Translations under genes and position numbers: made by a program
Shown here: piece by piece, positions 15,284-61,950 of the stretch
Layout of the letters: each line of letters begins with the position of its first letter
Numbering within the stretch: position 1 is the first letter of the stretch
Notes under the pieces: generated by a model
Told to the model about the DNA's origin: nothing
Database searches by the model: none
The model's input: the letters and a program-made list of their open reading frames with translations, nothing else
Sequence record: OQ990039
Source: Escherichia phage SUT_E420
Strand: one strand, 5' to 3'
Length of the DNA: 64,000 nt

Positions 15284-15473
15284 GGGTTTAAACGCCGCTT
15301 TGGAAAACGCATTAATGCAGCACTGGGAAACTGGCTATAAGGATGGTGTTGAATCCTGCGCTACTATGCTAGAAGTTATTGCTAATACCTTAATGGAGAA
15401 AGGCAATAAAGAATTAGCTGAGCTATTAGACAGTATTGGGCAAAACTTCAGAGAACAGGTGAAAAATGCGTAG
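15252..15473 (+). CDS. Hypothetical small protein
   Basis: 73-aa ORF overlapping both neighbours. Confidence 0.4.
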   Translation: MAFSKPMLPDKGLNAALENALMQHWETGYKDGVESCATMLEVIANTLMEKGNKELAELLDSIGQNFREQVKNA

Positions 15474-16281
15474 ATTAATTGTTATTAGCGGTGCAGGTTT
15501 GAGTGTTGAAAGTGGTGTACGAGCTTTTCGTACTGATACTGCTAGTGGTAAAGCATTGTGGGATGATTATGATCTAGAAGAAGTATGTAATATTCATGCC
15601 TTTCGTGGTAATTTTTATCATAAAACCCATATGTTTTACAACAAGCGTCGTGAAGAGCTAAAAACTGTTGAACCCAATCTTGCGCATTTGCGTATCGGTG
15701 AATGGTATAAACAATATCCAGGTCAAGTAGTAAACTTGACTACCAACGTTGATGACCTTATTGAGCGTTCTGGCGTTCCACATAATGACATTCTACACAT
15801 TCATGGATATTTAAAAGAGGTTGTTGTAGCTGATAGCTACAATAGTAGCAATAAACGGATTATTGATGTAGGATACAATTCTATTGATCCAGATGATTAT
15901 AAATGGGTTAAACCTAATGTAATCTTCTTTGGAGAGCATGCTCCAGCATATGCGGAGATGTACAATGTTTTTGATGGTATTACCAGTCAAGATATGATCA
16001 TTGTGGTTGGTTGCTCTAACCAAGTAATTAACTTCTACTGGGAATTATTTCCTGTTCTTAATTTGACTGCTGCCAAGCTAATGGTTGTTAACTACTATGA
16101 TAGTGCCCTAGCGGCGGAACCGAGCTATCAAGGTATGACTCGTAGTGAGATGTACCAGCTGGAAGAACGCGGTATCCCTTACTGGGGTAAAGGTGCGGTA
16201 GATGCTTTCAGTGATCCTGATTTTATTGCTCGTGTAGAAGCTCATTTAGGGGGTAGACCTTATGTGTCAGGAAATAAGTAA
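15466..16281 (+). CDS. Sir2-family (sirtuin-like) NAD-dependent protein
   Basis: 271 aa. N-terminal ISGAGLSVESGVRAFR matches the sirtuin NAD-binding motif GAG(I/L)SxESG(I/V)xxFR; Rossmann-like remainder. Confidence 0.7.
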   Translation: MRRLIVISGAGLSVESGVRAFRTDTASGKALWDDYDLEEVCNIHAFRGNFYHKTHMFYNKRREELKTVEPNLAHLRIGEWYKQYPGQVVNLTTNVDDLIERSGVPHNDILHIHGYLKEVVVADSYNSSNKRIIDVGYNSIDPDDYKWVKPNVIFFGEHAPAYAEMYNVFDGITSQDMIIVVGCSNQVINFYWELFPVLNLTAAKLMVVNYYDSALAAEPSYQGMTRSEMYQLEERGIPYWGKGAVDAFSDPDFIARVEAHLGGRPYVSGNK

Positions 16282-16774
16282 TACTCCAATTATTTTTCTA
16301 GACATTGATGGGGTGCTCAATTCGAGCATCTCCCACTATCATGCACCTGATGATGAAAAGATTTTCTTTGGAAGTGATTGGGTTTTCAAACCGCTTCTCA
16401 AGGCTTTTCAGGACTTTATTCGTCCTTCTCCAATAATGATTGTTGGAGTATCATCTTGGTTCTCTGTCAGAAATGAGATGGAGAACGTTCAGATTATGAC
16501 CGGATTAGGCCTTATCGATCGTTTTCTTGGTACAACGGATTTTACTGGTGGTGGATTATCTAGGGGTAATTCTGTTCTTCGCTTCGTTGAAAAGCATAAG
16601 CTCAAACATTGGTGTGTGCTTGATGATGCGGGTGCTATGATGTATCAGTATCCAACGGTTATAGTCAACGGTAGGACTGGTATAAATCTTCAAGATTTAA
16701 AAGCTGTTAGCTATATGCTAGAATTTAGCCCAGATCTTGAAATGTGTAAATCCTTACAACAATTTAAGGTGTAA
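16262..16774 (+). CDS. HAD-superfamily phosphatase-like protein
   Basis: 170 aa; N-terminal IIFLDIDGVLNS is HAD motif I (DxDG); later VLDD-like acidic motif. Start overlaps the Sir2 gene end. Confidence 0.5.
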   Translation: MCQEISNTPIIFLDIDGVLNSSISHYHAPDDEKIFFGSDWVFKPLLKAFQDFIRPSPIMIVGVSSWFSVRNEMENVQIMTGLGLIDRFLGTTDFTGGGLSRGNSVLRFVEKHKLKHWCVLDDAGAMMYQYPTVIVNGRTGINLQDLKAVSYMLEFSPDLEMCKSLQQFKV

Positions 16775-16776: not shown

Positions 16777-17205
16777 ATGTTCAATAATGTATTCTCTAAA
16801 GAAGCTAACCCAATTTTGGTTAACTTTTGGCGTACTCTTCCAGCTAGCCTGTATAATGAGGCTATTAACTCTTTGAAAATATGGTGTGAGAATAACGAAA
16901 TCTACTTTGCTTTTAAAGATGATATTGATGAAGCCCCCTGTATTGGTTTAATTGTTCAGGTAGAGGAGGGTCTTGAAGAGATTGTCGGCTGGAAAGAGTT
17001 AGATGAAATGGGCTTAGTTTTTGCGTTAAACTATAAGCTGTTTATGCCTGCTAAGCATCGCCTCGTTGTTAACTATAAAACTAGTGAATCTCCTGGTTTT
17101 CAAGTTAATGAACGTTACGGTTGGTCTTACTCACCAGAAGAAGTGAATGATGGTATCCAAAAACTTCGCCGTTTCGGGTATATGATCCCAGGTTTAACTG
17201 CTTAA
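16777..17205 (+). CDS. Hypothetical protein, paralog A of a tandem pair
   Basis: 142 aa; shares PCIG...MGL(V/I)xALN...(I/V)PGL blocks with the adjacent downstream ORF. Confidence 0.5.
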   Translation: MFNNVFSKEANPILVNFWRTLPASLYNEAINSLKIWCENNEIYFAFKDDIDEAPCIGLIVQVEEGLEEIVGWKELDEMGLVFALNYKLFMPAKHRLVVNYKTSESPGFQVNERYGWSYSPEEVNDGIQKLRRFGYMIPGLTA

Positions 17206-17214
17206 GGAGGCAGA

Positions 17215-17604
17215 ATGGAACAAGTATATTGGCGTCAGATTGACCCTAGTTTGGTGAAACGTGCGGAGAAGCTGCTACAACGTTGGTTGGGGGTAAGACA
17301 AGCCTCCTTCACTTTTCCTGAGCAGCAAATAGATGATCCATGCATTGGCGTTTTCCTGTCTGGATACGCCAGGGAATGGGAACTGGATTGGAATGAGTTG
17401 TCTGCTATGGGTTTAATTGTTGCCCTAAATTTCTCTTTGTTCCATCCACGTGGTTTTGCCATATGTCGTGTGCCGGATGATGGTTGTTCGCCCCATCTTT
17501 TACAGGTGGAAAATGATATTTGGGAGTACACTCCAGATATTCTCAAAGAAGCTAAAGAACAATTAAACCGTGTTGGGATATATGTTCCGGGATTAAATGA
17601 CTAA
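17215..17604 (+). CDS. Hypothetical protein, paralog B of a tandem pair
   Basis: 129 aa; homologous to the upstream ORF over its conserved blocks; GGAGG SD. Confidence 0.5.
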   Translation: MEQVYWRQIDPSLVKRAEKLLQRWLGVRQASFTFPEQQIDDPCIGVFLSGYAREWELDWNELSAMGLIVALNFSLFHPRGFAICRVPDDGCSPHLLQVENDIWEYTPDILKEAKEQLNRVGIYVPGLND

Positions 17605-17630
17605 TGATTTTTATTAGCTGAACTCTGATT

Positions 17631-17656
17631 ACCGAGTCATTTTGGCTCGGTTTTAT
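17631..17656 (+). terminator. Intrinsic terminator candidate after the Sir2 operon
   Basis: 8-bp stem ACCGAGTC / GGCTCGGT followed by TTTT. Confidence 0.45.
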
Positions 17657-17698
17657 CCGTACTCAAGACCAATGATAGCACCATCCGGAAAATTTTAC

Positions 17699-17727
17699 TT
17701 GCAGGATGCTCAAAATCTTGATATAAT
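17699..17727 (+). promoter_or_regulatory. T5-type early promoter reading into the ORF-free region
   Basis: -35 TTGCAG (17699-17704), 17-nt spacer, -10 TATAAT (17722-17727). Confidence 0.5.
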
Positions 17728-18226
17728 ATTTATATTGAATTGAGAGATATTAGTAAAAATTGATTTTGCTAATTTTTCTTGTTTACAATCCGCGATACGG
17801 AACAGTTAGGCTGCCCAATTAAGGGTTGTTTTAACTGTTACGTGTTAGTTTTTAAACAAATAGTTAATAGAATACTTAGCGATCTGCGTCCCGTAGGAAC
17901 CCTGGTAAGGCCTCGAAGCAACCTAGATAGAGGTGGTTGTGAAGTGAGACGGGAGGAGTGAAAAACTCCGAGACGTGATTCTGTAAGTTATATTGCATCT
18001 AGTATGAGCTAGTACATGAAGCATTAGGTGAGCAAATCTGGCTTAGCGGCCATCCTCAAGGATTTGTGCGGTATAGCAAAGCAGCAGCGCAGCGTGAAAG
18101 TGGAAGTTGCCACCCCACTTCAGTATTTGCGATTAATTTGTTGAGAAATTGACAGTAACAGTTGTTCTATTCTTTCTGAATAGTCCTAAAGAAAACTTAT
18201 TTCATTTCCAACACAGGAGTATTGTT

Positions 18227-20641
18227 GTGTTCTCAATCCTACAAGGTCATGCAGGATTTCATCGCGATTTAGCCACAGGCAATTGGCGAGAAGTTAAAGC
18301 AGAAGACTATCTTTTTGCTAAAAGATTTTCCTCAAAGCATCCTGAAGGTAAACCAGCTTCAATGCCCTTCAAGTTTGATGTAATTGATGAAGTTGATCCT
18401 CAAACCCTAGTAGAAATGCTTCCTCTTATGAGACGTTTAACGTCTGACCCTCATATCGTTGCGGTACGAGGTCGATGTCTTACACCTAAAAATAATGTGC
18501 GACGTAAGAAGGGCAACTTTAATGTATCTAACCCAAGTCATATAATTGCAATGGACGTGGATGGTATTGTAGATACAGGTGGTTGCAACAAGTTTGATCT
18601 TGTTGGCATGGCTCGACATATTATTAGAATGTTAAATAGTATTAGTGAGGATATGTTTCCTCTTGATGCAGGGTTTATCGCTCATGCATCGTCTTCGGCT
18701 GGGCTNNNNNNNNNNNNNNNNNNNNNNNNNNNNNNNNNNNNNNNNNNNNNNNNNNNNNNNNNNNNNNNNNNNNNNNNNNNNNNNNNNNNNNNNNNNNNNN
18801 NNNNNATGTTAAATAGTATTAGTGAGGATATGTTTCCTCTTGATGCAGGGTTTATCGCTCATGCATCGTCTTCGGCTGGGCTAAAACCAGGTATCCGAAT
18901 GCACTTAATACTAGAATCTAATGTTAAAGTAACTCAGGGTCAAATCAAATTCTTATTTACATCTATCAACGAAAGTAGTAGACAAAAGTATGGCTTTGAT
19001 ATTGCCGACTTAGCTTATTACTCTTCCGTACAGCTCCACTATTTTGCAGATCCGTTATTTACCGATGGTATAGTAGATCCGTTTAAAGCGGAGGGTGCTT
19101 CACGTCTGGTATTTGTTAAGGGTTCTAAAGTAAATTTACCCAATAATCTGGTTGACTATGAAACAACTAGAGGTGAGTTTAAGGAGGAGTTTTACTCTTT
19201 ACTCGATCAAATTAAAGGTAAAAAAGCTGCCTCTGATAAAGTAGAGGAAACTATCAGCGAACTAGAAGAAGCTGAGGATGGAGTGTATCTACGTATCATA
19301 CCTAAACTCTATCACAGAGCCTTAGAGGATGGTGTTGATTTTGCATGGCTAGAAAAAGAAATCCGTCCAGCCTTATCAGAATATATTGCAACTAAAGATA
19401 ACAGTCGCAATATTCAAGATTACTTTAATAACGGTCGTAAACAGGCTCTGAAAGCATTTGTTAATAATTCTAAACGTGATATACCTGATGTTTTAAAGGG
19501 TATTCCACTTAAAAAGCTAGAAACTAATTCTCTAGAAACTGATAACTTCTTGAAATTAAATACTGTACCACCAGAAGGTTATATGACTTTTGTAAAAGCA
19601 AGTCTAGGTACAGGTAAAACTACAGCGGTTGTGCGTTGGTTAGATTCAGGAGTTATTAAAGGTAATTTCTTAGCAATTACCAATACTAGAGCACTGGTAT
19701 CTTCAAATGCCAAGAAATTTAGTGCAGGACAATATGATAAGTCTGTAGATATGCTTAATTTTAAGCGGGGTGCTATTGACCGTATGTCCACAACTATTCA
19801 CTCTTTGCATAAATTCAAGAGTTTTATTGGTCAAATTGATGCAATCTTTATCGATGAATGTGATGCAGTAATGAATGACCTATTATTCGCCCCGGTTGTT
19901 AAACAACGTCGCGAGTGTATTCAGGTTCTTCGGGATATTCTTGCAACTGCAAAAATCATTATATTATCTGATGGGGATATTAGTGCAGAAACAATTGAAG
20001 CATATGGTTCTTTGATTGAGTTTGATAAACCAGTAGCATTTTATAACCATCACCGTAAAATGCTATCAAAAGCTCATGCTTATGAGTTCCCGGATGAATC
20101 CAGTATTTGGGTTGCACTTCAGACTTCTCTAGAGATGGGTGAGAAATCTATCCTAGTATCTGACTGTGGGCCGGATGAACTGAATGAGAAGGGTATGGCA
20201 TTGCGTCGTAATACGGGTGCGTTAGTTAAGGAAATCCACTCAAANNNNNNNNNNNNNNNNNNNNNNNNNNNNNNNNNNNNNNNNNNNNNNNNNNNNNNNN
20301 NNNNNNNNNNNNNNNNNNNNNNNNNNNNNNNNNNNNNNNNNNNNGATATTAAGAAGTGTTCAAATGTCACTATCAAACCATTCATAGAAGCTCTGAAAGG
20401 TAAGAAGAAAGATTTCTTCCTTAAAACAGGTCAGAGTGCTAACCCAAAATATGCCAGAATGTATCTTGGTATGATGGGTATTGGTAAGGATATGAACACT
20501 GAAAATATTGTAGACTGGTACAGAACCTATTGTAAAATCGAGTGTATGCCAATCCCCTATAAGTTTATGACTGATGAGGAGAAACATATGCATGATGAAG
20601 CAATGGCAGAGCTAGGTGCTAGAAATGACAGTGAAGAATAA
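18227..20641 (+). CDS. Putative replication initiator / P-loop helicase-like ATPase, possible N-terminal primase-polymerase-like domain (interrupted by two assembly gaps)
   Basis: Start proposed at GTG 18227 with AGGAG SD. Walker A SLGTGKTT and Walker B IFIDECD. N-terminal IIAMDVDG and GIRMHLIL resemble AEP motifs (tentative). Contains gaps 18706-18805 and 20245-20344. Confidence 0.55.
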   Translation: MFSILQGHAGFHRDLATGNWREVKAEDYLFAKRFSSKHPEGKPASMPFKFDVIDEVDPQTLVEMLPLMRRLTSDPHIVAVRGRCLTPKNNVRRKKGNFNVSNPSHIIAMDVDGIVDTGGCNKFDLVGMARHIIRMLNSISEDMFPLDAGFIAHASSSAGXXXXXXXXXXXXXXXXXXXXXXXXXXXXXXXXXXMLNSISEDMFPLDAGFIAHASSSAGLKPGIRMHLILESNVKVTQGQIKFLFTSINESSRQKYGFDIADLAYYSSVQLHYFADPLFTDGIVDPFKAEGASRLVFVKGSKVNLPNNLVDYETTRGEFKEEFYSLLDQIKGKKAASDKVEETISELEEAEDGVYLRIIPKLYHRALEDGVDFAWLEKEIRPALSEYIATKDNSRNIQDYFNNGRKQALKAFVNNSKRDIPDVLKGIPLKKLETNSLETDNFLKLNTVPPEGYMTFVKASLGTGKTTAVVRWLDSGVIKGNFLAITNTRALVSSNAKKFSAGQYDKSVDMLNFKRGAIDRMSTTIHSLHKFKSFIGQIDAIFIDECDAVMNDLLFAPVVKQRRECIQVLRDILATAKIIILSDGDISAETIEAYGSLIEFDKPVAFYNHHRKMLSKAHAYEFPDESSIWVALQTSLEMGEKSILVSDCGPDELNEKGMALRRNTGALVKEIHSXXXXXXXXXXXXXXXXXXXXXXXXXXXXXXXXXXDIKKCSNVTIKPFIEALKGKKKDFFLKTGQSANPKYARMYLGMMGIGKDMNTENIVDWYRTYCKIECMPIPYKFMTDEEKHMHDEAMAELGARNDSEE
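18706..18805. other. Assembly gap (100 N) flanked by identical 77-bp copies
   Basis: The 77 bp before the N-run (18629-18705) are repeated exactly after it (18806-18882). Confidence 0.95.
20245..20344. other. Assembly gap (100 N) without flanking duplication
   Basis: No repeat of the flanking sequence across the gap; true gap content and length unknown. Confidence 0.95.
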
Positions 20642-28649: not shown

Positions 28650-30842
28650 TTGAAAATCGCAGTAGTTGATAAAGCTCTAAATAACACTCGTTACGATAAA
28701 CATTTCCAGCTATACGGCGAGGAAGTTGATGTATTTCATATGTGTAACGAGAAGTTATCTGGTCGTTTGCTTAAAAAGCACATTACTATTGGAACACCAG
28801 AAAATCCATTTGATCCGAATGATTACGATTTTGTTATACTAGTAGGTGCTGAACCTTTCCTGTATTTCGCAGGTAAGAAAGGCATTGGTGACTATACTGG
28901 TAAACGTGTAGAATATAATGGATATGCTAACTGGATTGCAAGTATCAGCCCAGCCCAGTTACACTTTAAGCCTGAAATGAAACCAGTTTTCGATGCAACA
29001 GTAGAGAATATCCACGATATTATCAATGGTCGTGAAAAGATTGCAAAAGCTGGTGATTACCGTCCTATTACTGACCCTGATGAGGCGGAAGAATATATCA
29101 AGATGGTGTATAATATGGTTATCGGACCTGTCGCATTCGACTCCGAAACCTCAGCACTATACTGTCGAGATGGTTATCTGCTTGGTGTTTCTATATCTCA
29201 CCAAGAGTATCAGGGTGTATATATCGATTCTGATTGTCTCACAGAGGTTGCAGTATATTATCTCCAGAAAATTCTGGATAGTGAAAACCACACTATTGTT
29301 TTTCACAACTTGAAGTTTGATATGCACTTTTATAAGTACCATCTGGGACTTACTTTTGATAAAGCACATAAAGAACGCAGGCTCCATGATACAATGTTGC
29401 AGCATTATGTTCTAGATGAGCGTCGTGGTACTCATGGCTTGAAATCTCTAGCAATGAAGTATACCGATATGGGTGACTATGACTTTGAACTAGATAAGTT
29501 CAAAGATGATTACTGCAAAGCACATAAAATCAAGAAAGAAGATTTCACCTATGATTTAATTCCGTTTGATATTATGTGGCCTTACGCTGCAAAAGATACC
29601 GATGCCACCATACGCTTGCACAACTTCTTCTTACCAAAAATTGAGAAGAATGAAAAACTTTGCAGTCTGTATTATGATGTTCTAATGCCTGGTTGTGTAT
29701 TTCTCCAGCGTGTTGAGGATCGTGGTGTACCNNNNNNNNNNNNNNNNNNNNNNNNNNNNNNNNNNNNNNNNNNNNNNNNNNNNNNNNNNNNNNNNNNNNN
29801 NNNNNNNNNNNNNNNNNNNNNNNNNNNNNNNGGGTATCGTGTAATCGCATGGGACTTAACAACTGCGGAAGTTTATTATGCTGCTGTTCTATCTGGGGAT
29901 AGAAATATGCAACAGGTATTTATCAATATGAGAAATGAACCTGATAAATACCCGGACTTCCACTCTAACATCGCACACATGGTATTTAAACTCCAATGCG
30001 AGCCTCGTGATGTTAAAAAGTTATTCCCAGCTCTGCGTCAGGCTGCTAAGGCAATTACCTTCGGTATTTTGTATGGTTCTGGCCCAGCTAAAGTAGCTCA
30101 TTCTGTTAACGAAGCTCTTCTGGAACAGGCTGCTAAGACAGGAGAACCGTTTGTTGAATGTACTGTTGCGGATGCGAAGGACTATATCGAAACTTACTTC
30201 GGTCAGTTCCCACAGCTTAAGCGTTGGATTGATAAGTGCCACGATCAGATTAAGAATCATGGATTTATCTATAGTCACTTTGGTCGTAAGCGTCGTCTGC
30301 ACAATATCCACTCCGAAGACCGTGGTGTTCAGGGTGAAGAAATTCGTTCTGGATTTAACGCAATCATTCAGTCTGCTTCCTCTGATAGCCTCCTTTTAGG
30401 TGCTGTAGATGCAGATAATGAGATCATTTCTCTTGGCCTAGAACAAGAGATGAAGATTGTTATGCTGGTTCATGACTCCGTGGTTGCTATTGTTCGTGAG
30501 GATTTGATCGACCAATACAATGAAATCCTGATTCGTAATATTCAGAAAGACCGTGGTATCAGTATTCCTGGCTGTCCGATTGGTATTGATTCAGATTCTG
30601 AAGCTGGAGGTTCTCGTGACTATTCTTGTGGTAAGATGAAGAAACAGCACCCATCAATCGCTTGTATTGATGATGATGAATATACTCGTTATGTCAAGAG
30701 TGTATTACTTGATGCAGAGTTCGAGTATAAGAAACTAGCTGCAATGGATAAAGAGCATCCAGATCATAGCAAATACAAGGATGATAAGTTTATTGCTGTA
30801 TGTAAAGATTTGGATAACGTAAGAAGGATTCTCGGTGCTTGA
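28650..30842 (+). CDS. DNA polymerase, family A with 3'-5' exonuclease domain (interrupted by an assembly gap)
   Basis: TTG start after AGAGGAG SD. Exo motif FDSETSALY, Pol motif B RQAAKAITFGILYGSG, motif C LVHDSV. Gap 29732-29831 has no flanking duplication. Confidence 0.9.
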   Translation: MKIAVVDKALNNTRYDKHFQLYGEEVDVFHMCNEKLSGRLLKKHITIGTPENPFDPNDYDFVILVGAEPFLYFAGKKGIGDYTGKRVEYNGYANWIASISPAQLHFKPEMKPVFDATVENIHDIINGREKIAKAGDYRPITDPDEAEEYIKMVYNMVIGPVAFDSETSALYCRDGYLLGVSISHQEYQGVYIDSDCLTEVAVYYLQKILDSENHTIVFHNLKFDMHFYKYHLGLTFDKAHKERRLHDTMLQHYVLDERRGTHGLKSLAMKYTDMGDYDFELDKFKDDYCKAHKIKKEDFTYDLIPFDIMWPYAAKDTDATIRLHNFFLPKIEKNEKLCSLYYDVLMPGCVFLQRVEDRGVXXXXXXXXXXXXXXXXXXXXXXXXXXXXXXXXXXGYRVIAWDLTTAEVYYAAVLSGDRNMQQVFINMRNEPDKYPDFHSNIAHMVFKLQCEPRDVKKLFPALRQAAKAITFGILYGSGPAKVAHSVNEALLEQAAKTGEPFVECTVADAKDYIETYFGQFPQLKRWIDKCHDQIKNHGFIYSHFGRKRRLHNIHSEDRGVQGEEIRSGFNAIIQSASSDSLLLGAVDADNEIISLGLEQEMKIVMLVHDSVVAIVREDLIDQYNEILIRNIQKDRGISIPGCPIGIDSDSEAGGSRDYSCGKMKKQHPSIACIDDDEYTRYVKSVLLDAEFEYKKLAAMDKEHPDHSKYKDDKFIAVCKDLDNVRRILGA
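29732..29831. other. Assembly gap (100 N) without flanking duplication, inside the polymerase gene
   Basis: No repeated flank; likely conceals real polymerase sequence. Confidence 0.95.
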
Positions 30843-33977: not shown

Positions 33978-34077
33978 NNNNNNNNNNNNNNNNNNNNNNN
34001 NNNNNNNNNNNNNNNNNNNNNNNNNNNNNNNNNNNNNNNNNNNNNNNNNNNNNNNNNNNNNNNNNNNNNNNNNNNNN
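33978..34077. other. Assembly gap (100 N) flanked by identical 77-bp copies
   Basis: 77-bp flank (33901-33977) repeated exactly at 34078-34154. Confidence 0.95.
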
Positions 34078-34165: not shown

Positions 34166-35320
34166 ATGAGAATATTATTTAGTGCTGATCATCATATCAA
34201 ACTAGGACAAGATAAAGTTCCAAAGGAATGGCAGAAGCGTCGCTTCCTGATGCTAGGAGAACGGTTAAATGATATATTCCATAATCATAACTGTGATCTT
34301 CATATTGCTGGTGGTGATATACTTGATGTTGCCGACCCGTCGTCAGAAGAAATAGAACTGCTTGAACAGTTCATGTCAAGACTTGACCATCCAGGCAAAA
34401 TCTTTACTGGAAATCATGAAATGTTAACGAAAACCATTTCATGTCTATATCATTATGCAGGAGTTATTAATAAAGTAACGAGTGGTAAGTGGGAAGTAAT
34501 TACCAAACCATATCGTTCCCCTGAATTTGATATTGTTCCATATGACGAAATCCATAAATCTAAGTGGAAACCATCTGAATCAAAACTATGTTTCACGCAT
34601 GTTCGTGGTGAAATCCCTCCACATGTAAAACCAGANNNNNNNNNNNNNNNNNNNNNNNNNNNNNNNNNNNNNNNNNNNNNNNNNNNNNNNNNNNNNNNNN
34701 NNNNNNNNNNNNNNNNNNNNNNNNNNNNNNNNNNNTCTAAGTGGAAACCATCTGAATCAAAACTATGTTTCACGCATGTTCGTGGTGAAATCCCTCCACA
34801 TGTAAAACCAGAAATTGATCTAACTAAGTACAACTGTTATGATACTGTAATTGCTGGCGATTTACATTCTTATACTAATAGCCAGACTATCGGATCTACT
34901 AGACTCCTCTACCCAGGGTCTCCATTAACTACATCGTTCCATAGAGAACGCACAAAAGGTACAAATGGTTGCTTTATCGTTGATACCGACACATTAAAAG
35001 TAGAATGGATTGAACTCGGTGATTTACCACAACTGATTCGTAAAACAATCGGAGCTGGTGAAGAGATGGAACCTAGTGATTATGATCGTGTAGTCTATGA
35101 AGTTACTGGTGACGTTGTTCAATTAAAGTCTATCAAAGACTCTGATTTATTAGATAAGAAGATTAACCATCGAGTTACTAAAGACGCTAAGTTAAATCTT
35201 GTTGATCTTGATATGTTAGGCGAACTTGAACTTTACTTCCGTGAAGTTGAGAAGCTATCTCAAGGCGACATTGATAGAATCTTGGCTAGAGCTGCGAAAT
35301 ATGTCAAAGATTACAATTAA
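34166..35320 (+). CDS. sbcD: SbcD/Mre11-like nuclease (calcineurin-like phosphoesterase)
   Basis: N-terminal MRILFSADHHI metallophosphatase motif I. Contains artifact gap 34636-34735 with duplicated flank; true protein about 59 aa shorter. Confidence 0.85.
   Translation: MRILFSADHHIKLGQDKVPKEWQKRRFLMLGERLNDIFHNHNCDLHIAGGDILDVADPSSEEIELLEQFMSRLDHPGKIFTGNHEMLTKTISCLYHYAGVINKVTSGKWEVITKPYRSPEFDIVPYDEIHKSKWKPSESKLCFTHVRGEIPPHVKPXXXXXXXXXXXXXXXXXXXXXXXXXXXXXXXXXXSKWKPSESKLCFTHVRGEIPPHVKPEIDLTKYNCYDTVIAGDLHSYTNSQTIGSTRLLYPGSPLTTSFHRERTKGTNGCFIVDTDTLKVEWIELGDLPQLIRKTIGAGEEMEPSDYDRVVYEVTGDVVQLKSIKDSDLLDKKINHRVTKDAKLNLVDLDMLGELELYFREVEKLSQGDIDRILARAAKYVKDYN
34636..34735. other. Assembly gap (100 N) flanked by identical 77-bp copies
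   Basis: Exact 77-bp duplication either side. Confidence 0.95.
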
Positions 35321-35372: not shown

Positions 35373-35472
35373 NNNNNNNNNNNNNNNNNNNNNNNNNNNN
35401 NNNNNNNNNNNNNNNNNNNNNNNNNNNNNNNNNNNNNNNNNNNNNNNNNNNNNNNNNNNNNNNNNNNNNNNN
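35373..35472. other. Assembly gap (100 N) flanked by identical 77-bp copies
   Basis: Exact 77-bp duplication either side; duplicates the sbcD stop / sbcC start junction. Confidence 0.95.
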
Positions 35473-35477: not shown

Positions 35478-37670
35478 ATGTCAAAGATTACAATTAAGAC
35501 ACTAAAATTTAGTAACGTTATGTCTTACGGTAAGGACATCGTAATTCATCTCGATAAGAATCCCGTTACTCAACTAATCGGGGGCAATGGGCTAGGGAAA
35601 TCTACAATTGCTACTGTTATTGAAGAACTATTCTATAATAAGAACTCACGCGGTATTAAGAAAGATGCTCTGTTCTCTTGGTCTTCTCCGAAAAAAGAAT
35701 ACGATATGCACGCTTATTTCTCGAAAGATGAGGATGAGTATGAACTGCATAAAGTAGTTAAGTCAACTGCTAAAGTAACTCTTATTAAGAATGGGGAAGA
35801 TATTAGTGGACACACGGCAACCCAAACATACAAGATGATTGAAGAAATTATGGGTGGTGACTTCCAAACATTCACCAAACTGATTTATCAATCGGTGGGC
35901 TCCAATCTAGACTTTCTAAAAGCAACGGATGCAACACGTAAGGCTTTTCTTGTTAACTTGTTCAATCAAGAACAGTATAAAGAAATGTCAGAAACTATTA
36001 AGGCNNNNNNNNNNNNNNNNNNNNNNNNNNNNNNNNNNNNNNNNNNNNNNNNNNNNNNNNNNNNNNNNNNNNNNNNNNNNNNNNNNNNNNNNNNNNNNNN
36101 NNNNGATGCAACACGTAAGGCTTTTCTTGTTAACTTGTTCAATCAAGAACAGTATAAAGAAATGTCAGAAACTATTAAGGCTGACCGTAAAGAAATAGCA
36201 AATACCTTAAACAATTTGCAAGGCCAAATGGCTGTAATTACGAAAATCCTTAATGGAAAGAATAATCTAGGAACTCTACAGGAACCTGTAGAAGTACCGG
36301 AGTTTGATGAAGAACCATTAGCACAAGAACTTACTGAATCGAAAATTAAGGCGGCATTAGCCAAGTCTCAAGAGGCTAATATTACTAAATTGCGTAATTT
36401 GGACAAAGCTGTACAAGTTGCCGAACAATCTTTCGAACCTTTCAAAAATTTACCCGCGCCCACCGACCAAAACGAAGAGATCTCAAGTGTTACGCGTGAC
36501 CTAACGATTGTGACCTCACGTGCTGGTGAAGTTAAGAAACGTTATCAGAAGTTCAAGCAAGAGGCTTCAAATACTGAATGTCCTACTTGTGGTACTCATC
36601 TGGATACAACTGCCGCTCAAAAAGCAATGGATATGGCTAGAACAGAATATGATCCTCTGTTCAAAGAGAAGCAATCTCTTGAAGCTAAGCTAGAACAGTT
36701 GAGGAAAGAACAACTTGAGTACGTTGCGTATATTAGAGCAAAGGATGCCTTGGATAAAGCAGTGGTAGCTAGGGACGAGTTCAAAAATTCAATGAGTGAT
36801 GCTTCTTTTGAAGAACTCAATGTGCAAATCCTACAGGTGCAAATCCGACAATTAGAACAGGAAATCGCTGATGGNNNNNNNNNNNNNNNNNNNNNNNNNN
36901 NNNNNNNNNNNNNNNNNNNNNNNNNNNNNNNNNNNNNNNNNNNNNNNNNNNNNNNNNNNNNNNNNNNNNNNNNNGATGCTTCTTTTGAAGAACTCAATGT
37001 GCAAATCCTACAGGTGCAAATCCGACAATTAGAACAGGAAATCGCTGATGGACGTTCTAAGGTTGCAATTGCCAAAGAGCATAATGCAAATGTCGAATTA
37101 GCCAATGCAAAATATAAAGCGAAACTAGAACAGATTGAGAAAGCTGAAGCAGAAATGTCCGAGATTACTTCCAAATTAAATGAAGTATCAGAAGCTGTTG
37201 CTGATCTCGATATTCTGATTGCTGCATTGAAGAATTTAGTAGGATATAAACTAGAGCATAGTGTGAAAGTATTTGAAGAACTAATTAATAAATACCTTTC
37301 TATTATGACTGGCGGTAAATTCGCACTTGGATTTGAACTTGATGAAACAAAATTACAAGTAGTAATCTTCAATGATGGAAATCGTACCAGTATGGAGAAC
37401 TGCTCTACTGGTCAACAGAGTCGAATTAACCTAGCAACCCTGTTAGCTATTCGGATGCTGTTAACATCTATTAGTAAAGTTAATATTAATCTTCTATTCC
37501 TTGATGAAGTAATTAGCTTTATTGATACGAAAGGACTTGACACTCTTGTTGAATTATTAAACGAGGAAGAAAGTCTAAATTCTATCATTGTTTCTCATGG
37601 GCATACGCATCCACTAGCTCATAAGATTACTGTCAAAAAAGATGCAGAAGGATTTTCCTACTTAGAATAA
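35478..37670 (+). CDS. sbcC: SbcC/Rad50-like ATPase
   Basis: MSKITIKTLKFSNVMSYG start (second copy, after the gap; first copy at 35299); Walker A GGNGLGKST, long coiled-coil, Walker B LLFLDEVISFID. Contains gaps 36005-36104 and 36875-36974. Confidence 0.8.
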   Translation: MSKITIKTLKFSNVMSYGKDIVIHLDKNPVTQLIGGNGLGKSTIATVIEELFYNKNSRGIKKDALFSWSSPKKEYDMHAYFSKDEDEYELHKVVKSTAKVTLIKNGEDISGHTATQTYKMIEEIMGGDFQTFTKLIYQSVGSNLDFLKATDATRKAFLVNLFNQEQYKEMSETIKXXXXXXXXXXXXXXXXXXXXXXXXXXXXXXXXXXDATRKAFLVNLFNQEQYKEMSETIKADRKEIANTLNNLQGQMAVITKILNGKNNLGTLQEPVEVPEFDEEPLAQELTESKIKAALAKSQEANITKLRNLDKAVQVAEQSFEPFKNLPAPTDQNEEISSVTRDLTIVTSRAGEVKKRYQKFKQEASNTECPTCGTHLDTTAAQKAMDMARTEYDPLFKEKQSLEAKLEQLRKEQLEYVAYIRAKDALDKAVVARDEFKNSMSDASFEELNVQILQVQIRQLEQEIADXXXXXXXXXXXXXXXXXXXXXXXXXXXXXXXXXXDASFEELNVQILQVQIRQLEQEIADGRSKVAIAKEHNANVELANAKYKAKLEQIEKAEAEMSEITSKLNEVSEAVADLDILIAALKNLVGYKLEHSVKVFEELINKYLSIMTGGKFALGFELDETKLQVVIFNDGNRTSMENCSTGQQSRINLATLLAIRMLLTSISKVNINLLFLDEVISFIDTKGLDTLVELLNEEESLNSIIVSHGHTHPLAHKITVKKDAEGFSYLE
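36005..36104. other. Assembly gap (100 N) flanked by identical 77-bp copies
   Basis: Exact 77-bp duplication either side. Confidence 0.95.
36875..36974. other. Assembly gap (100 N) flanked by identical 77-bp copies
   Basis: Exact 77-bp duplication either side. Confidence 0.95.
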
Positions 37671-37673: not shown

Positions 37674-38333
37674 ATGGCTGTAGATAGTAGAGAGAAAGGT
37701 AAACGTGGTGAATATCAGGTAAGAGATATTCTACGTGAGCGTACAGGTCTTGAGTGGGAACGTGTTCCTGGCTCTGGTGCTTTTGGCCAGAGCCACGGAC
37801 TGAAAGGTGACATCTACCTTCCACCACAAAGCGGACACATTAGTAAATACTGCTTCGAAGTTAAGTGGTANNNNNNNNNNNNNNNNNNNNNNNNNNNNNN
37901 NNNNNNNNNNNNNNNNNNNNNNNNNNNNNNNNNNNNNNNNNNNNNNNNNNNNNNNNNNNNNNNNNNNNNNCACGGACTGAAAGGTGACATCTACCTTCCA
38001 CCACAAAGCGGACACATTAGTAAATACTGCTTCGAAGTTAAGTGGTATAAAGATGATAATATATCAAGTAATTTATTTAATGTTGGTGAATCCACTCTAG
38101 AGAAGTGGTGGCAGCAGTGCTCACGTGAAGGTGAGCAGATGAACTCCAAACCTGCATTAATATTCAAAAAAGACAGAGGACAGTGGTTAATAGCTTTGGA
38201 TAGCTCAGACCCAATGGTTGACAACTTAATGAGTCGTACCCATATGGTGTTAAATAAGAAAGACATGGAAATCGTAATTGGTTTATTTGAACCGTGGCTA
38301 CATCATGCATCTGTTGAGGACTTAATTAAATAA
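37674..38333 (+). CDS. Putative Holliday-junction resolvase (Hjc-like PD-(D/E)xK nuclease)
   Basis: GKRGEYQVRDILRE...RVPGSG...GDIYL...FEVKW resembles the archaeal Hjc pattern. Contains artifact gap 37871-37970. Confidence 0.45.
   Translation: MAVDSREKGKRGEYQVRDILRERTGLEWERVPGSGAFGQSHGLKGDIYLPPQSGHISKYCFEVKWXXXXXXXXXXXXXXXXXXXXXXXXXXXXXXXXXXHGLKGDIYLPPQSGHISKYCFEVKWYKDDNISSNLFNVGESTLEKWWQQCSREGEQMNSKPALIFKKDRGQWLIALDSSDPMVDNLMSRTHMVLNKKDMEIVIGLFEPWLHHASVEDLIK
37871..37970. other. Assembly gap (100 N) flanked by identical 77-bp copies
   Basis: Exact 77-bp duplication either side. Confidence 0.95.
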
Positions 38334-39385
38334 TGAGTAAATCCTGGGGAAAATTTATTGAAGAAGAGGAAGCTGAAATGGCTTCCCGTCGTAACCTAAT
38401 GATTGTCGATGGAACTAACTTAGGCTTTCGCTTCAAACATAANNNNNNNNNNNNNNNNNNNNNNNNNNNNNNNNNNNNNNNNNNNNNNNNNNNNNNNNNN
38501 NNNNNNNNNNNNNNNNNNNNNNNNNNNNNNNNNNNNNNNNNNGAGGAAGCTGAAATGGCTTCCCGTCGTAACCTAATGATTGTCGATGGAACTAACTTAG
38601 GCTTTCGCTTCAAACATAACAACAGTAAAAAACCATTTGCCTCAAGTTATGTTTCCACTATTCAGTCTCTAGCAAAATCTTATTCTGCTAGAACTACAAT
38701 AGTTTTAGGAGATAAGGGGAAGTCTGCATTCCGCTTAGAGCATTTACCTGAGTATAAGGGTAATCGAGATGAGAAATACTCTCAGCGTACGGAAGAGGAG
38801 AAAGCGTTAGATGAGCAGTTCTTCGAGTATTTGAAAGATGCTTTCGAGTTATGTGAAACTACATTCCCAACTTTCACTATTCGGGGTGTAGAAGCAGATG
38901 ATATGGCAGCTTATATTGTTAAACTGATCGGGCATCTATATGATCACGTTTGGCTGATTTCTACTGATGGTGACTGGGATACTTTATTAACTGATAAAGT
39001 ATCTCGCTTCTCTTTCACAACACGTCGTGAATACCATCTTCGTGATATGTATGAGCATCATAATGTTGACGATGTAGAGCAGTTTATCTCCCTGAAAGCA
39101 ATTATGGGTGATTTAGGGGATAATATCCGAGGTGTTGAAGGTATTGGGGCAAAGCGCGGGTATAATATTATTCGTGAATTTGGTAACGTTCTGGATATTA
39201 TTGATCAGCTTCCACTGCCTGGAAAACAGAAATATATACAGAATTTAAATGCTTCGGAAGAATTGCTTTATCGAAACCTAATTCTGGTTGATTTACCTAC
39301 CTACTGTGTGGATGCTATTGCTGCTGTAGGTCAAGATGTATTAGATAAATTTACAAAAGATATTTTGGAGATTGCAGAACAATGA
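38333..39385 (+). CDS. Flap endonuclease / 5'-3' exonuclease (T5 D15-like)
   Basis: LMIVDGTNLGFRFKH and downstream acidic clusters typical of FEN. True length about 291 aa after removing artifact gap 38443-38542. Confidence 0.9.
   Translation: MSKSWGKFIEEEEAEMASRRNLMIVDGTNLGFRFKHXXXXXXXXXXXXXXXXXXXXXXXXXXXXXXXXXXEEAEMASRRNLMIVDGTNLGFRFKHNNSKKPFASSYVSTIQSLAKSYSARTTIVLGDKGKSAFRLEHLPEYKGNRDEKYSQRTEEEKALDEQFFEYLKDAFELCETTFPTFTIRGVEADDMAAYIVKLIGHLYDHVWLISTDGDWDTLLTDKVSRFSFTTRREYHLRDMYEHHNVDDVEQFISLKAIMGDLGDNIRGVEGIGAKRGYNIIREFGNVLDIIDQLPLPGKQKYIQNLNASEELLYRNLILVDLPTYCVDAIAAVGQDVLDKFTKDILEIAEQ
38443..38542. other. Assembly gap (100 N) flanked by identical 77-bp copies
   Basis: Exact 77-bp duplication either side. 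Confidence 0.95.
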
Positions 39386-43304: not shown

Positions 43305-45554
43305 TTACCTTATATGGATGTACCCGTTTTGCAGGTCTATCTTCATTCTGTAATAGGCTTCCGGATTATCAGATAATGCAGCGTTTCTATCATAAATAAC
43401 GTTAACACCGATCTGAGATAAGAAGGCATTATTTGCTACAATCTTACTGGCGGTTACCGTACCATTAACTATCATATCGCCATGCAGTACCATTGCTGGG
43501 TTAACCCAACCGGAACCATTCCATTGACGAGTAAATGCAGATTGCGGAGCATTACTATTAAACTCTGTCAATACATCATATCTAACTGGAGGACTACCAA
43601 AGTTATTCTGGAAGAAGGCATTAGCCTGCCCATCATCCCAACCACCAAGACCAGGAATACCTAAGGAATACATTCCAGGACCACGTTGTCCATCATGTCC
43701 TATAGTACCTTCAGTACCACTCCACTGAACTACATCAGACCAGCTAGTACCTGCAAGTAGCTTATTAGTAACTGGGTCAAGTGTACCCGTAGTCGCATAG
43801 ATATTTTGTGTCATATCTGTACGATTAGGTGGAGTTTTTGACCAACCAGGAGGCGGATAATCTTGTTCTAGTGGCTTTGCTGGAAGTGCAGTTGATATCT
43901 TATAAACAAATACTGTTTGCTTGCCCTGTATACCTGTTTGGATATCTACATCGCCATTTGGTGTTCCAATTACTACTCCACTAGAAATACGTAGTACATC
44001 ACCATCATAACGAATCCACTGTGTGGCATTACCAATGTCTAACTTAGCTTTGGCAGAGGTATTATCCATGCCCATCCAAATACCGGAGTTATTATCCCCC
44101 CAAGATTTACCTTGAGTGTAAATTGCTGGATTATCCTTACCGGATAAGTTAGTCATGATAAAATTCGCAGCATTAATATCTCTAGTAATTACTTTACCAT
44201 CAACGTTAACAACACGGTTTATAGGATCAAAAGAAATAGGTGCTTTTCCCTCTTCATCTAGCAGACCAATGTTAATAGCACCAGTAGCTGCATCGATTAA
44301 GAATGTCTGTCTCCAGATTTCTCCATCTTTCATGCTGCCCTTAATAAAGGCATAGTTAACATCAATACCAGTCTCATTGACAAAGCTGTTATCTAGAGGA
44401 GTATCTTCATTCAATATAAATGTTACAGGAGCTGATTCTGTTATATCTTGTTTATTTGGTCCCCAGGCAATTGATGATACCTTAAAGGTATGTTCAACTT
44501 TCCATGGGAATGATATAATTGTTGCAGCTCTGGCAGCACCAACGTTTATCTTTTGAGCTTTAGCCCAGCCAGTCTTAGCGTATTCTTCAGAATTTATATA
44601 TGTAACCAAGAACTCACGAACATTAGCACCACCACCGCGTTCCCAATCCCACTCAATTCTAACATCATATCGTTCTTTACCATCAGCAATTCGTGCAGCT
44701 TTAAAAACAATATTGATAGGTGCAGTAGGAGGAACAAAATTATAAGCTACTGTTAAAATATTAGGGAATTCATAGTACCCAGAAGAATCAACTGTAACAC
44801 CATCAGGCATAGTTACTTGACCAGATATTCTGATCTTATAATCTCCGATAGGAACTCCACCAAATTTAATAGTAGAACCTAAAGCCCCAATGTAATACTT
44901 AGTCCAAGGACTGTCTTCAGTAGCTGTACTTTTTAACTCAATAGTACAGTAGCTTGCTTCACCAGTTGTTTCTACGACAACTATCGGTGCACCTACCCCA
45001 ACATCCACAGGTTCTGATTCAGATCTTGCTGCAACAATTATTGGCTTCTCTTTTGTCCTAAAGTTAGTCTCATTAGAGAGATTGATACCAATCTTAGCCT
45101 CTAGCAGTTCAGAATCAATAATAGAGTCGTAGAAAGCCCCTTGAATCTCGTAAGAGGTTGAAGGGGTCAGGTTATTAATCATTATGAAGAAAGTATCTAT
45201 ACCAGTATAATCACGTCTATCTATACTTTCTCCTGTCTTTAACCAAAAAGATCTACCAATAANNNNNNNNNNNNNNNNNNNNNNNNNNNNNNNNNNNNNN
45301 NNNNNNNNNNNNNNNNNNNNNNNNNNNNNNNNNNNNNNNNNNNNNNNNNNNNNNNNNNNNNNGAAGAAAGTATCTATACCAGTATAATCACGTCTATCTA
45401 TACTTTCTCCTGTCTTTAACCAAAAAGATCTACCAATAACGTCATAGTCAGTATATATAGAGTGCTGGACATATGCCATTGTATATCCAGTCATTATACT
45501 ATTTAAGACCATTTTGGCTGGTGCATTATTCGAAATCATTAAATGGATGCCCAC
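43305..45554 (-). CDS. Baseplate/central fibre protein (T5 pb4-like, tentative)
   Basis: Large beta-rich ORF in the tail-tip module. Start uncertain (GTG 45554 or ATG 45539). Contains artifact gap 45263-45362. Confidence 0.45.
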   Translation of the reverse strand: MGIHLMISNNAPAKMVLNSIMTGYTMAYVQHSIYTDYDVIGRSFWLKTGESIDRRDYTGIDTFFXXXXXXXXXXXXXXXXXXXXXXXXXXXXXXXXXXIGRSFWLKTGESIDRRDYTGIDTFFIMINNLTPSTSYEIQGAFYDSIIDSELLEAKIGINLSNETNFRTKEKPIIVAARSESEPVDVGVGAPIVVVETTGEASYCTIELKSTATEDSPWTKYYIGALGSTIKFGGVPIGDYKIRISGQVTMPDGVTVDSSGYYEFPNILTVAYNFVPPTAPINIVFKAARIADGKERYDVRIEWDWERGGGANVREFLVTYINSEEYAKTGWAKAQKINVGAARAATIISFPWKVEHTFKVSSIAWGPNKQDITESAPVTFILNEDTPLDNSFVNETGIDVNYAFIKGSMKDGEIWRQTFLIDAATGAINIGLLDEEGKAPISFDPINRVVNVDGKVITRDINAANFIMTNLSGKDNPAIYTQGKSWGDNNSGIWMGMDNTSAKAKLDIGNATQWIRYDGDVLRISSGVVIGTPNGDVDIQTGIQGKQTVFVYKISTALPAKPLEQDYPPPGWSKTPPNRTDMTQNIYATTGTLDPVTNKLLAGTSWSDVVQWSGTEGTIGHDGQRGPGMYSLGIPGLGGWDDGQANAFFQNNFGSPPVRYDVLTEFNSNAPQSAFTRQWNGSGWVNPAMVLHGDMIVNGTVTASKIVANNAFLSQIGVNVIYDRNAALSDNPEAYYRMKIDLQNGYIHIR
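45263..45362. other. Assembly gap (100 N) flanked by identical 77-bp copies
   Basis: Exact 77-bp duplication either side. Confidence 0.95.
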
Positions 45555-60382: not shown

Positions 60383-61950
60383 TCTTTATCTCCCTCGGTG
60401 GAACCTTGAGGTCTGCCACCTTCTTGACCAGATACACCTGTTACAGAACCAGCAACGTTAGCAGGAATACGAATCTTATCCATCTGCTCATCATCTAAAG
60501 GTTCAAGGTTCAGCTCTAAACGAGCTTCGTTACCAGTCATAATACCATTATTAACCAATGAGGTTAAATGTTTAGCCTCAGCTTCTTTATCTGGTGTTAA
60601 TGCAGCTACTTCCTTAGTATTAGGAGTAATCTTATAACCAAAAAAGAAAGTAAGAGAACTAGTCAGTTTGTTCAGCATAGGAATGATAGTCATATAATAG
60701 AACAGTTCGATATTTGGTCGAATGTTCGCATTATTACCACCATCAAGCAGTACTTGCGGAACACCAAAGGCTAGACAGATAGATTTATTAAATCCTTCAA
60801 TGTCTTCCTTGAAGTCTAGGTCTTTAAAAGAGGATATTTGGGAGTACGGTTTAGCTTTCATACCACCATCTAGAATCAGGACAGAGGACTGACCAGTACT
60901 AGGATTATAATCTAGTTGTAATTCTTCTTGTTTACGCTCACGCAATTTCTTGTTCAGGATTTCATCCGTCTCAAGAATAAGACCAATCACNNNNNNNNNN
61001 NNNNNNNNNNNNNNNNNNNNNNNNNNNNNNNNNNNNNNNNNNNNNNNNNNNNNNNNNNNNNNNNNNNNNNNNNNNNNNNNNNNNNNNNNNAGTTGTAATT
61101 CTTCTTGTTTACGCTCACGCAATTTCTTGTTCAGGATTTCATCCGTCTCAAGAATAAGACCAATCACAGTTCCATTATCGAGGAATTTCTCTTTAAAGTT
61201 AAGCATCTTAGAACGCTTCTCAAGAGAGTCAATAACAGTAGCAACACGAGATTGTCCAGAAATTTGAGAATTTGTGCCACACACGTAACTGTTATCCTTT
61301 ATAAAGATAATCTCATCTACGCGATAGTCTATCTGGTTATTAAATATAAATTTTTTGATAAACTTATTGGCATCTGCCTCTACTTGCATTAATGCAGCAG
61401 GGACATGGTAAAGTGCTGTGCCATCCCAATAGATGTATGCACAACCTTCAAAAAGTAGGTCAGTGACTACAAGTCTACGGAATGTGCTTATATNNNNNNN
61501 NNNNNNNNNNNNNNNNNNNNNNNNNNNNNNNNNNNNNNNNNNNNNNNNNNNNNNNNNNNNNNNNNNNNNNNNNNNNNNNNNNNNNNNNNNNNNTGTGCCA
61601 TCCCAATAGATGTATGCACAACCTTCAAAAAGTAGGTCAGTGACTACAAGTCTACGGAATGTGCTTATATCCATGAATGGATTAGGTCGTACATTTAAGA
61701 GAGTGTCTAGAGTCTTTGCCTTGATGCCATTGGCATACGTGACAATATTATATTTATCTCCGACAGTATAAGAACACTCCGCCGCACTATCTATAACCAT
61801 ATTAGCAGTTCTATTGAGAATCTCAATTTTACTGTAGGCTTGTCCAGTGGTAAAAGGCTTACGGTTAGTGCGATGACTAACTGGTTCCATGTCTCTTATA
61901 ATACGTTGACCCGGATTTAGCTTTTCAGTAATCCAGCTTTTAAAACCCAT
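60379..61950 (-). CDS. Portal protein
   Basis: Lies between the terminase-proximal HNH gene and the decoration/protease genes. Contains gaps 60991-61090 and 61494-61593; true length about 405 aa. Confidence 0.65.
   Translation of the reverse strand: MGFKSWITEKLNPGQRIIRDMEPVSHRTNRKPFTTGQAYSKIEILNRTANMVIDSAAECSYTVGDKYNIVTYANGIKAKTLDTLLNVRPNPFMDISTFRRLVVTDLLFEGCAYIYWDGTXXXXXXXXXXXXXXXXXXXXXXXXXXXXXXXXXXISTFRRLVVTDLLFEGCAYIYWDGTALYHVPAALMQVEADANKFIKKFIFNNQIDYRVDEIIFIKDNSYVCGTNSQISGQSRVATVIDSLEKRSKMLNFKEKFLDNGTVIGLILETDEILNKKLRERKQEELQXXXXXXXXXXXXXXXXXXXXXXXXXXXXXXXXXXVIGLILETDEILNKKLRERKQEELQLDYNPSTGQSSVLILDGGMKAKPYSQISSFKDLDFKEDIEGFNKSICLAFGVPQVLLDGGNNANIRPNIELFYYMTIIPMLNKLTSSLTFFFGYKITPNTKEVAALTPDKEAEAKHLTSLVNNGIMTGNEARLELNLEPLDDEQMDKIRIPANVAGSVTGVSGQEGGRPQGSTEGDKE
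60991..61090. other. Assembly gap (100 N) flanked by identical 77-bp copies
   Basis: Exact 77-bp duplication either side. Confidence 0.95.
61494..61593. other. Assembly gap (100 N) flanked by identical 77-bp copies
   Basis: Exact 77-bp duplication either side. Confidence 0.95.

Follow-up and report, generated by a model that had tools for sequence, protein, structure and literature searches.

Two adjacent DUF7415 paralogs, one canonical and one degenerate, close the Sir2 operon of a T5-like phage

A stretch of 64,000 nucleotides (nt) from Escherichia phage SUT_E420 (sequence record OQ990039; hereafter the window) carries on its plus strand two adjacent small genes that are firmly shown to be real genes and paralogs of each other. 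The upstream gene, open reading frame A (ORF-A; positions 16777 to 17205, 142 amino acids [aa]), is the ortholog of T5.106, and the downstream gene, ORF-B (17215 to 17604, 129 aa), is the ortholog of T5.107. Both encode proteins of the DUF7415 family, ORF-A being the degenerate and ORF-B the canonical paralog. The window is that of a T5-like phage: its segment from 15400 to 18200 matches Escherichia phages SUT_E1520 and SUT_E520 at 100% identity and many Tequintavirus genomes at 96 to 97%, with 528 phage records matching in total, and there are zero N letters in the gene-pair region. The explanation that we favor, tentatively and with rather less than even confidence, is that the pair forms a hetero-oligomeric binding or regulatory factor of early infection that would be tied to the neighboring Sir2 protein; that a complex exists, that it binds something, and what it acts on are all inferences.

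The similarity between the two proteins lies far beyond chance. A single BLASTP comparison aligned ORF-A and ORF-B over 124 aa with one gap, at 31% identity and 46% positives (E value, 6e-19). This was the alignment proposed in a preliminary description of the DNA, made from the letters alone, which had reported two adjacent ORFs of 142 and 129 aa at these coordinates, as we confirm. It had also listed three blocks shared by the proteins. Two of them, PCIG (residues 53 to 56 of ORF-A and 42 to 45 of ORF-B) and a PGL near both C termini (IPGLTA in ORF-A, VPGLND in ORF-B), are as described, whereas the third, given as MGL-x-ALN, has two residues rather than one in its middle and should read MGL-xx-ALN (MGLVFALN in ORF-A, MGLIVALN in ORF-B).

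Both proteins matched Pfam DUF7415 (PF24187) well above its gathering score of 27 bits, ORF-A with 125.1 bits and ORF-B with 109.6 bits. The model is only 53 positions long, and each protein matched it in two stretches; when the halves were scanned alone, all four still exceeded the cutoff (74.1 and 55.0 bits for ORF-A, 59.1 and 54.3 bits for ORF-B). Both also covered the whole 134-position profile of PHROG 2502, annotated "unknown function" (E value, 1.5e-62 for ORF-A and 1.4e-61 for ORF-B). The pair thus does match a known family, although that family has no assigned function. ORF-A and ORF-B are already catalogued hypothetical genes and do not represent a new system on present evidence. NCBIfam gave no match for either protein, and an Rfam scan found no RNA family between 14500 and 18300.

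Four modules can be delimited in the pair, all on the plus strand. In ORF-A, a first DUF7415-like module (16819 to 16971; residues 15 to 65; 74.1 bits) precedes a second module with a degraded motif (16978 to 17139; residues 68 to 121), and in ORF-B, a first DUF7415-like module (17221 to 17367; residues 3 to 51; 59.1 bits) precedes a second module that holds the canonical core (17383 to 17541; residues 57 to 109). A core hidden Markov model (HMM), built solely from 111 distant single-module proteins, recognized the second modules of ORF-A (E value, 4.5e-10) and ORF-B (E value, 2.6e-20) and did not recognize the first module of either protein. The motif of the second module in ORF-B is DWNELS..GL..LN..FHP.G.A..R.P..G.SP...WEY. 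In ORF-A, GWK stands for DWN, FMP for FHP, and NYKTSES for RDPxTGxS, and only W, GL, LN, P, SP, and W.Y are retained.

Structure prediction, also proposed in the preliminary description, gave confident AlphaFold2 models for both proteins, with a mean predicted local distance difference test score (pLDDT) of 87.5 and a predicted template modeling score (pTM) of 0.82 for ORF-A and a pLDDT of 91.7 and a pTM of 0.86 for ORF-B. The order of elements is the same in the two models: strand-helix-strand-strand, corresponding to the first module, then strand-helix-helix-strand-strand, and then a C-terminal helix, with three invariant tryptophans at the starts of three segments. Each protein has an isoelectric point (pI) of 4.7, and the median pI of the core module is 4.6. 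The two halves of each protein share a strand-helix-strand-strand topology in the models. When the N-terminal halves were aligned to the core alignment with hhalign, the match (E value, 0.007 to 0.015 over 39 to 43 columns) fell where the predicted fold would place it. An HMM of the N-terminal module run against core modules, and the reverse search, scored no better than shuffled or reversed decoys. Because these HMM-versus-sequence tests failed to beat decoys, we grade the internal duplication, that is, two homologous modules per protein, as probable only. The loop between the modules of ORF-B (residues 48 to 56, approximately) is rich in insertions and deletions and varies in length and sequence among close relatives, with variants such as SGYAR-EWEL, KVYVPDNEAIEHVEM, and TSRDQNDVPVDFEM, and the rest of the protein is conserved.

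Searches with sequence profiles of the whole proteins and of the core retrieved no PDB chain even at an E value of 10, and Foldseek searches against predicted viral structures returned DUF7415 proteins only. No solved structural relative of the predicted DUF7415 fold was found. A match to AcrIC4, a small anti-CRISPR protein (PDB 8dfo, chain M), lies below the usual significance, is absent with the ORF-A model, and is accompanied by no sequence relationship.

The predicted order in ORF-B residues 54 to 119 and ORF-A residues 67 to 132, namely strand, helix, helix, strand, strand, helix, is that of a type I KH domain, and conserved polar residues are found on helix 1, at the helix junction (S-x-x-G), on helix 2, on strand 2, and in the loop that follows. 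The second module and C-terminal helix could therefore be read as a KH-like regulator that binds single-stranded RNA or DNA, or a nucleotide, and controls, for example, early-gene translation or replication. One GenBank record labels an ortholog as "RNA-binding protein," although without stated evidence. We consider this reading unlikely. Unlike the type I KH domains of NusA, KRR1, and FUSE-binding protein, ORF-A and ORF-B have no GXXG loop, the motif being S-x-x-G, they are acidic, and no KH family was matched even at an E value of 10 in Pfam scans with 48 core sequences, nor did any other family come up at loose thresholds. Moreover, the most conserved part of DUF7415 proteins is the loop joining strands 2 and 3, which in KH domains is the variable loop.

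In a neighbor-joining tree, the upstream copies of the window, of locus L041, of L043/Sugarlandvirus, and of L045 formed one clade with a bootstrap of 94/100; the downstream copies fell elsewhere, and the single-copy forms were separate. The clade spans the Tequintavirus type, Sugarlandvirus, and two metagenomic T5-like lineages. Because the upstream copies of the main T5-like lineages form one clade, the tree firmly indicates that the tandem duplication is old; we place it within T5-like phages. The upstream copies of L136 and L137 lie outside the main upstream clade, which possibly reflects a second duplication or fast divergence.

The asymmetry between the two copies recurs across these lineages. 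The motif DWN..S..GL..N..H(P/K/Q/S)..A..R.P.TG.S..W.Y is retained, with minor substitutions in individual members, by every downstream and every single copy, and all upstream copies are without DWN (the Asn after the first Trp) and without the R-D-P-x-T-G loop. The His is gone in most upstream copies (FMP, LYP, LLR, RER, LLG); those of L136 and L137 retain it but not the rest. With the core HMM, E values range from 1e-17 to 1e-20 for downstream copies and from 1e-8 to 1e-10 for upstream copies.

Both copies are under purifying selection. Pairwise Nei-Gojobori ratios of nonsynonymous to synonymous substitution rates (dN/dS) across 29 T5-like genomes were 0.077 (median) and 0.093 (summed ratio) for ORF-A and 0.119 and 0.152, respectively, for ORF-B; for the neighboring genes, they were 0.103 and 0.160 for Sir2, 0.067 for HAD, and 0.017 for NrdD. 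No gene-wide diversifying selection was found on ORF-A or ORF-B in the 29 genomes, and genes of this family are fixed in all T5-like lineages, as core rather than variable accessory genes. The clade support and the dN/dS range of about 0.08 to 0.15 bear out the suggestion of an old tandem duplication kept under selection. The further suggestion in the preliminary description, that such a pattern points to a host-interaction or anti-defense factor, is neither borne out nor refuted; against it stand the absence of gene-wide diversifying selection, the fixation of the genes, and the lack of a match to any defense or anti-defense family. In PADLOC, ORF-A had two hits only, with E values of 0.045 to 0.057, and ORF-B had none.

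The layout of the locus predicts that ORF-A and ORF-B are a cotranscribed and translationally coupled pair encoding small acidic early-region proteins. Upstream on the plus strand are a CobB-like Sir2 gene (15466 to 16281; T5.102 ortholog; Pfam SIR2, E value of 4e-24) and a gene for a HAD-family phosphatase-like protein (16262 to 16774; T5.105 ortholog; Pfam HAD_SAK_2, E value of 9e-20), the latter a variable member of the operon. The ATG of ORF-A lies 2 nt past the HAD stop codon (16772 to 16774). The ATG of ORF-B, at 17215, follows the ORF-A stop codon (17203 to 17205) after a 9-nt spacer (17206 to 17214) in which GGAGG (17206 to 17210) is the Shine-Dalgarno sequence of ORF-B; in six other lineages, the paired genes overlap by 4 to 23 nt. 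Beyond ORF-B, a predicted intrinsic terminator on the same strand (17631 to 17655) has a 9-bp stem, a 3-nt loop, and then UUUUAU (RNA folding energy, -13.9 kcal/mol; z score, -2.7), and the records of T5, Lindwurm, Slocum, and Spivey annotate a terminator at the equivalent place. The 2-nt gap to the HAD gene, the GGAGG coupling, and the terminator agree with the earlier proposal that the pair ends the Sir2 operon. In T5, T5.106 (429 nt) and T5.107 (393 nt) close a unit that runs from an annotated promoter upstream of T5.100 to the annotated terminator; nrdD, T5.100, T5.101, Sir2 (T5.102), and T5.105 lie upstream and the replication-origin-binding gene T5.108 lies downstream, and the layout in Lindwurm is the same. 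We take this to be the T5 early-gene region, with the timing presumed from position.

Every two-module DUF7415 protein with a readable context is encoded in a T5-like genome beside Sir2. The order Sir2-HAD-A-B is seen at 27 loci of the Tequintavirus and Epseptimavirus types, whereas Sugarlandvirus and three metagenomic lineages have Sir2, a small ORF in some cases, and the pair, without HAD. My1, Slocum, L131, and L139 have only one two-module gene, placed after Sir2, and HAD or nrdD may be present or absent. HAD is missing between Sir2 and the DUF7415 gene or genes in L041, L043, L045, L133/L134, L136, L137, and Slocum. At L136 (5001 to 6645), a metagenomic T5-like contig, the order is inverted, with the pair first and then Sir2, and that side lacks nrdD; no other rearrangement that leaves the three genes together was seen. 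A short contig of 2.9 kb, P0056, has no Sir2 on it and is uninformative for linkage. The Sir2 protein itself is 54 to 62% identical across T5-like lineages, and among solved structures it comes closest to E. coli CobB and Sirt5-class deacylases. Its GAGxS, TTNVDD, and HxHG motifs are conserved across seven lineages; no conserved Zn-binding cysteine pairs were noted when the alignment was inspected by eye.

Outside T5-like phages, DUF7415 is widespread in a simpler form. When 1.84 billion representatives were searched exhaustively with a profile, 151 clusters (50% identity) were returned at an E value of 1e-3 or better, most of which match only the second-module core, IDWNxLSxxGLIxRINxEILHPLGLAxxRDPxTGxSPGxLVxxDGxWEY, and a tblastn search with the core matched 911 phage records. 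The commonest form is a stand-alone protein of 65 to 85 aa, found in phages and in genomes of Aeromonas, Enterobacter, Salmonella, Vibrio, and Photobacterium. Such single-module proteins (e.g., Aeh1 ORF299c and those of Aeromonas, Enterobacter, and Salmonella prophages) have the same core as the second module of ORF-B, DWNxLSxxGLxxxINxxxLHPxGLAxxRxPxTGxS...WxY, and like ORF-A and ORF-B, they are acidic and encoded in early-region operons. They differ in that the usual P2-like and T4-like form has one module and a single gene, whereas the T5-like form has two modules plus a C-terminal helix and two paralogous genes, one with a degraded motif. The early operon of P2-like prophages carries the gene in the vicinity of gpA, Dam or C5 methylases, DUF3850/ASCH, and a 3'-5' exonuclease, and in Aeh1, it follows rnlA. 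In the T4-like genera Bragavirus and Jiaodavirus (L003, 3959 to 4222; L004, 3983 to 4216), a single-module gene sits between nrdD and a putative nrdG, which echoes the nrdD-proximal position in T5-like phages. Occasional fusions join DUF7415 to a dATP/dGTP pyrophosphohydrolase domain, thymidylate kinase, DUF3850/ASCH, Cox, DUF551, or a ClpX-type zinc finger.

Some apparent relatives did not survive inspection. P2 Orf91, named as a relative in a note of the T5 record, is a DUF3850 protein and not DUF7415; the link was traced to DUF3850-DUF7415 fusions or neighbors in other P2-like phages. What looked by eye like a Lar-like N terminus of P0096 found no confirmation in the Pfam census and was dropped. 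The giant repeat proteins P0053, P0086, P0148, and P0194 match only the DGxWxY stretch (profile positions 98 to 128, approximately) and are treated as chance matches; by eye, P0148 and P0194 look VCBS/cadherin-like, and P0053 has only scattered, unrelated Pfam fragments.

The hetero-oligomer explanation draws these observations together. In it, the stand-alone single-module protein of other phages would work as a homo-oligomer, which T5-like phages would have turned into a hetero-oligomer, with T5.107 supplying one canonical binding site and T5.106 acting as a scaffold. The two co-expressed proteins would together serve the early program of DNA-precursor synthesis and replication as a nonenzymatic factor for binding or regulation and would be tied, in the T5-like family, to the adjacent CobB-like Sir2. 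We are led to this mechanism by the gene coupling, the canonical-plus-degenerate pattern, the gene neighborhoods, and the fusions, and to a role in DNA-precursor metabolism or replication because DUF7415 elsewhere adjoins nrdD, gpA, and Dam and is fused to dATP/dGTP pyrophosphohydrolase and thymidylate kinase. Hetero-oligomers that combine an active with an inactive subunit usually show such a pairing of a canonical with a degenerate paralog. The T5-like pair resembles such hetero-oligomers in that the paralogs are adjacent and coupled, with polar residues kept in one and lost in the other across lineages.

The same gene order could instead be simply inherited, with the two proteins acting as independent, subfunctionalized monomers that form no complex and have no tie to Sir2. 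Sir2 and DUF7415 do occur apart outside T5-like phages, Slocum, My1, L131, and L139 manage with a single copy, and T5.107 scored in a published knockdown screen in which T5.106 did not. Yet in seven lineages the stop of one gene and the start of the next are closely coupled, the adjacency to Sir2 survives inversion of gene order and gain or loss of HAD and NrdD, and the consistent canonical-plus-degenerate pattern is the one that hetero-oligomers with active and inactive subunits usually show. We consider independent monomers improbable.

That screen, CRISPRi-ART applied to T5, placed T5.107 among only 17 genes called "Fit" (score, -2.90; p = 0.0215) and described it as a gene of entirely unknown function (PMC11879866, supplement). 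The knockdown of T5.107 is the only functional datum for the pair, and it singles out the paralog with the canonical motif. DUF7415, T5.106, and T5.107 were not found in the main text of any paper in the library searched, and neither the HIDEN-SEQ preprint nor the phiR2-01 proteome paper contained anything on the T5.106 and T5.107 genes.

Several observations weigh against the hetero-oligomer explanation. The fitness signal of T5.107 is marginal, and T5.106 (p = 0.17), Sir2 (p = 0.72), and HAD (p = 0.81) were all "Not Fit" in the same screen; so was the origin-binding T5.108 (p = 0.34), and because that gene was missed, the sensitivity of the screen is low (PMC11879866). The internal duplication reaches a profile-profile E value of only about 0.01, and its profile-versus-sequence test does not rise above shuffled decoys. 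The same type of Sir2 (48 to 64% identity) is present on 20 contigs of other phages with no DUF7415 within 4 kb; Sir2 also occurs in rV5-like, phi92-like, and KVP40-like phages, and DUF7415 occurs in P2-like and T4-like phages without Sir2 nearby. The linkage to Sir2 may thus be family-specific synteny, and the fusion partners may reflect neighboring small ORFs of phage early regions.

A universal coupling of Sir2 and DUF7415 is rejected by the 20 Sir2 contigs without DUF7415 and by the P2-like and T4-like phages that have DUF7415 without Sir2. Since this Sir2 type and DUF7415 each occur apart in other phage groups, the linkage is bound to one viral family: it is strong inside that family and absent outside it. 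The relatives of the window's Sir2 at 48 to 64% identity (loci L107 to L113, L115 to L120, L125 to L130, and L132) are in phages of approximately 77 to 153 kb, of the rV5-like and phi92-like groups, and Sir2 is more distantly common to KVP40-like and jumbo phages.

The fitness datum and the early-region setting also bear on an anti-defense or host-takeover role, in which DUF7415 would be an inhibitor that blocks a host immune or housekeeping protein or sequesters an immune signaling nucleotide, and the T5-like pair would be a specialized two-subunit version. The proteins are small and acidic and encoded in an early-gene region, and the main form elsewhere is the protein of 65 to 85 aa encoded in early accessory regions of P2-like prophages beside methylases, DUF3850/ASCH, and an exonuclease. 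The gene adjoins a Sir2 that uses NAD, and many defenses deplete NAD. Knockdown of T5.107 cuts fitness on laboratory E. coli, as does that of the T4 anti-defense gene dmd (PMC11879866). However, selection on both genes is purifying gene-wide (dN/dS, 0.08 to 0.15), the genes show no patchy distribution but are fixed throughout the T5-like lineages, and no solved structure is matched in sequence. On balance, an inhibitor of this kind is possible, if doubtful.

A bolder version of the hetero-oligomer explanation makes DUF7415 a small fold of a new kind whose ligand would be a nucleotide, a metabolite derived from NAD, or a short nucleic acid, and that is homo-oligomeric in many phages of Gammaproteobacteria and hetero-oligomeric in T5-like phages, where it works with the CobB-like Sir2. 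The pair might then, for example, detect or tie up a product made from NAD or guide the sirtuin toward a host target in takeover or counter-defense. We regard this version as quite unlikely.

Database labels offer a different assignment, to a virion tail tube protein or an exonuclease. The labels "tail tube protein," "tail protein," "exonuclease," and "Phage exonuclease (ACLAME 70)" are all that speaks for it. PHROG 2502 is of unknown function, Pfam gives DUF7415 only, and NCBIfam gives nothing; the operon lies in the T5 early-gene region, between nucleotide-metabolism and replication genes; and neither Pfam nor NCBIfam revealed a nuclease family, nor was there a significant structural match. 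The assignment is effectively refuted and almost certainly wrong. None of the searches run here supported the GenBank labels "tail tube protein," "exonuclease," or "RNA-binding protein."

DUF7415 is a common and uncharacterized phage protein module, present in 911 phage genomes and 151 clusters, and it is most readily studied in the T5 pair, because T5 serves as a model phage, the genes are conserved, one is canonical and one degraded, there is a marginal phenotype, and a sirtuin is adjacent. If the pair turned out to act with the sirtuin, or to bind nucleotides or immune signals, a gene set of hundreds of therapeutic-candidate phages would be explained. We rate the interest of the pair as moderate because the family is widespread and structurally unassigned and has one marginal phenotype.

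Other features of the window concern the neighboring genes. Two small ORFs found in the Sir2-HAD interval of T5, T5.103 and T5.104, are missing here, and the start of HAD overlaps the stop of Sir2 by 20 nt (16262 to 16281). Many relatives align as two pieces at the Sir2/HAD junction, pointing to a common indel there. The HAD gene is named "Sir2 (NAD-dependent deacetylase)" in the RefSeq T5 record and several others, whereas Pfam assigns it to HAD_SAK_2, a phosphatase-like domain of RNA-repair proteins; the wrong label has probably spread via phrog_18062. From 17605 to 18148, an AT-rich noncoding gap of approximately 540 nt lies between the operon with its terminator and the replication-origin-binding gene. 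A promoter is annotated there in T5, and the equivalent gap measures 400 to 970 nt in all T5-like lineages examined.

The window also contains 14 runs of exactly 100 N, and at 12 of them an identical 77-nt sequence stands on either side. They lie at 18706 to 18805, 20245 to 20344, 29732 to 29831, 33978 to 34077, 34636 to 34735, 35373 to 35472, 36005 to 36104, 36875 to 36974, 37871 to 37970, 38443 to 38542, 45263 to 45362, 60991 to 61090, 61494 to 61593, and 62115 to 62214, and they look like scaffold joins of overlapping contigs rather than biology. Two of the runs break the replication-origin-binding gene (18149 to 20641), and its translation consequently shows an apparent internal protein duplication.

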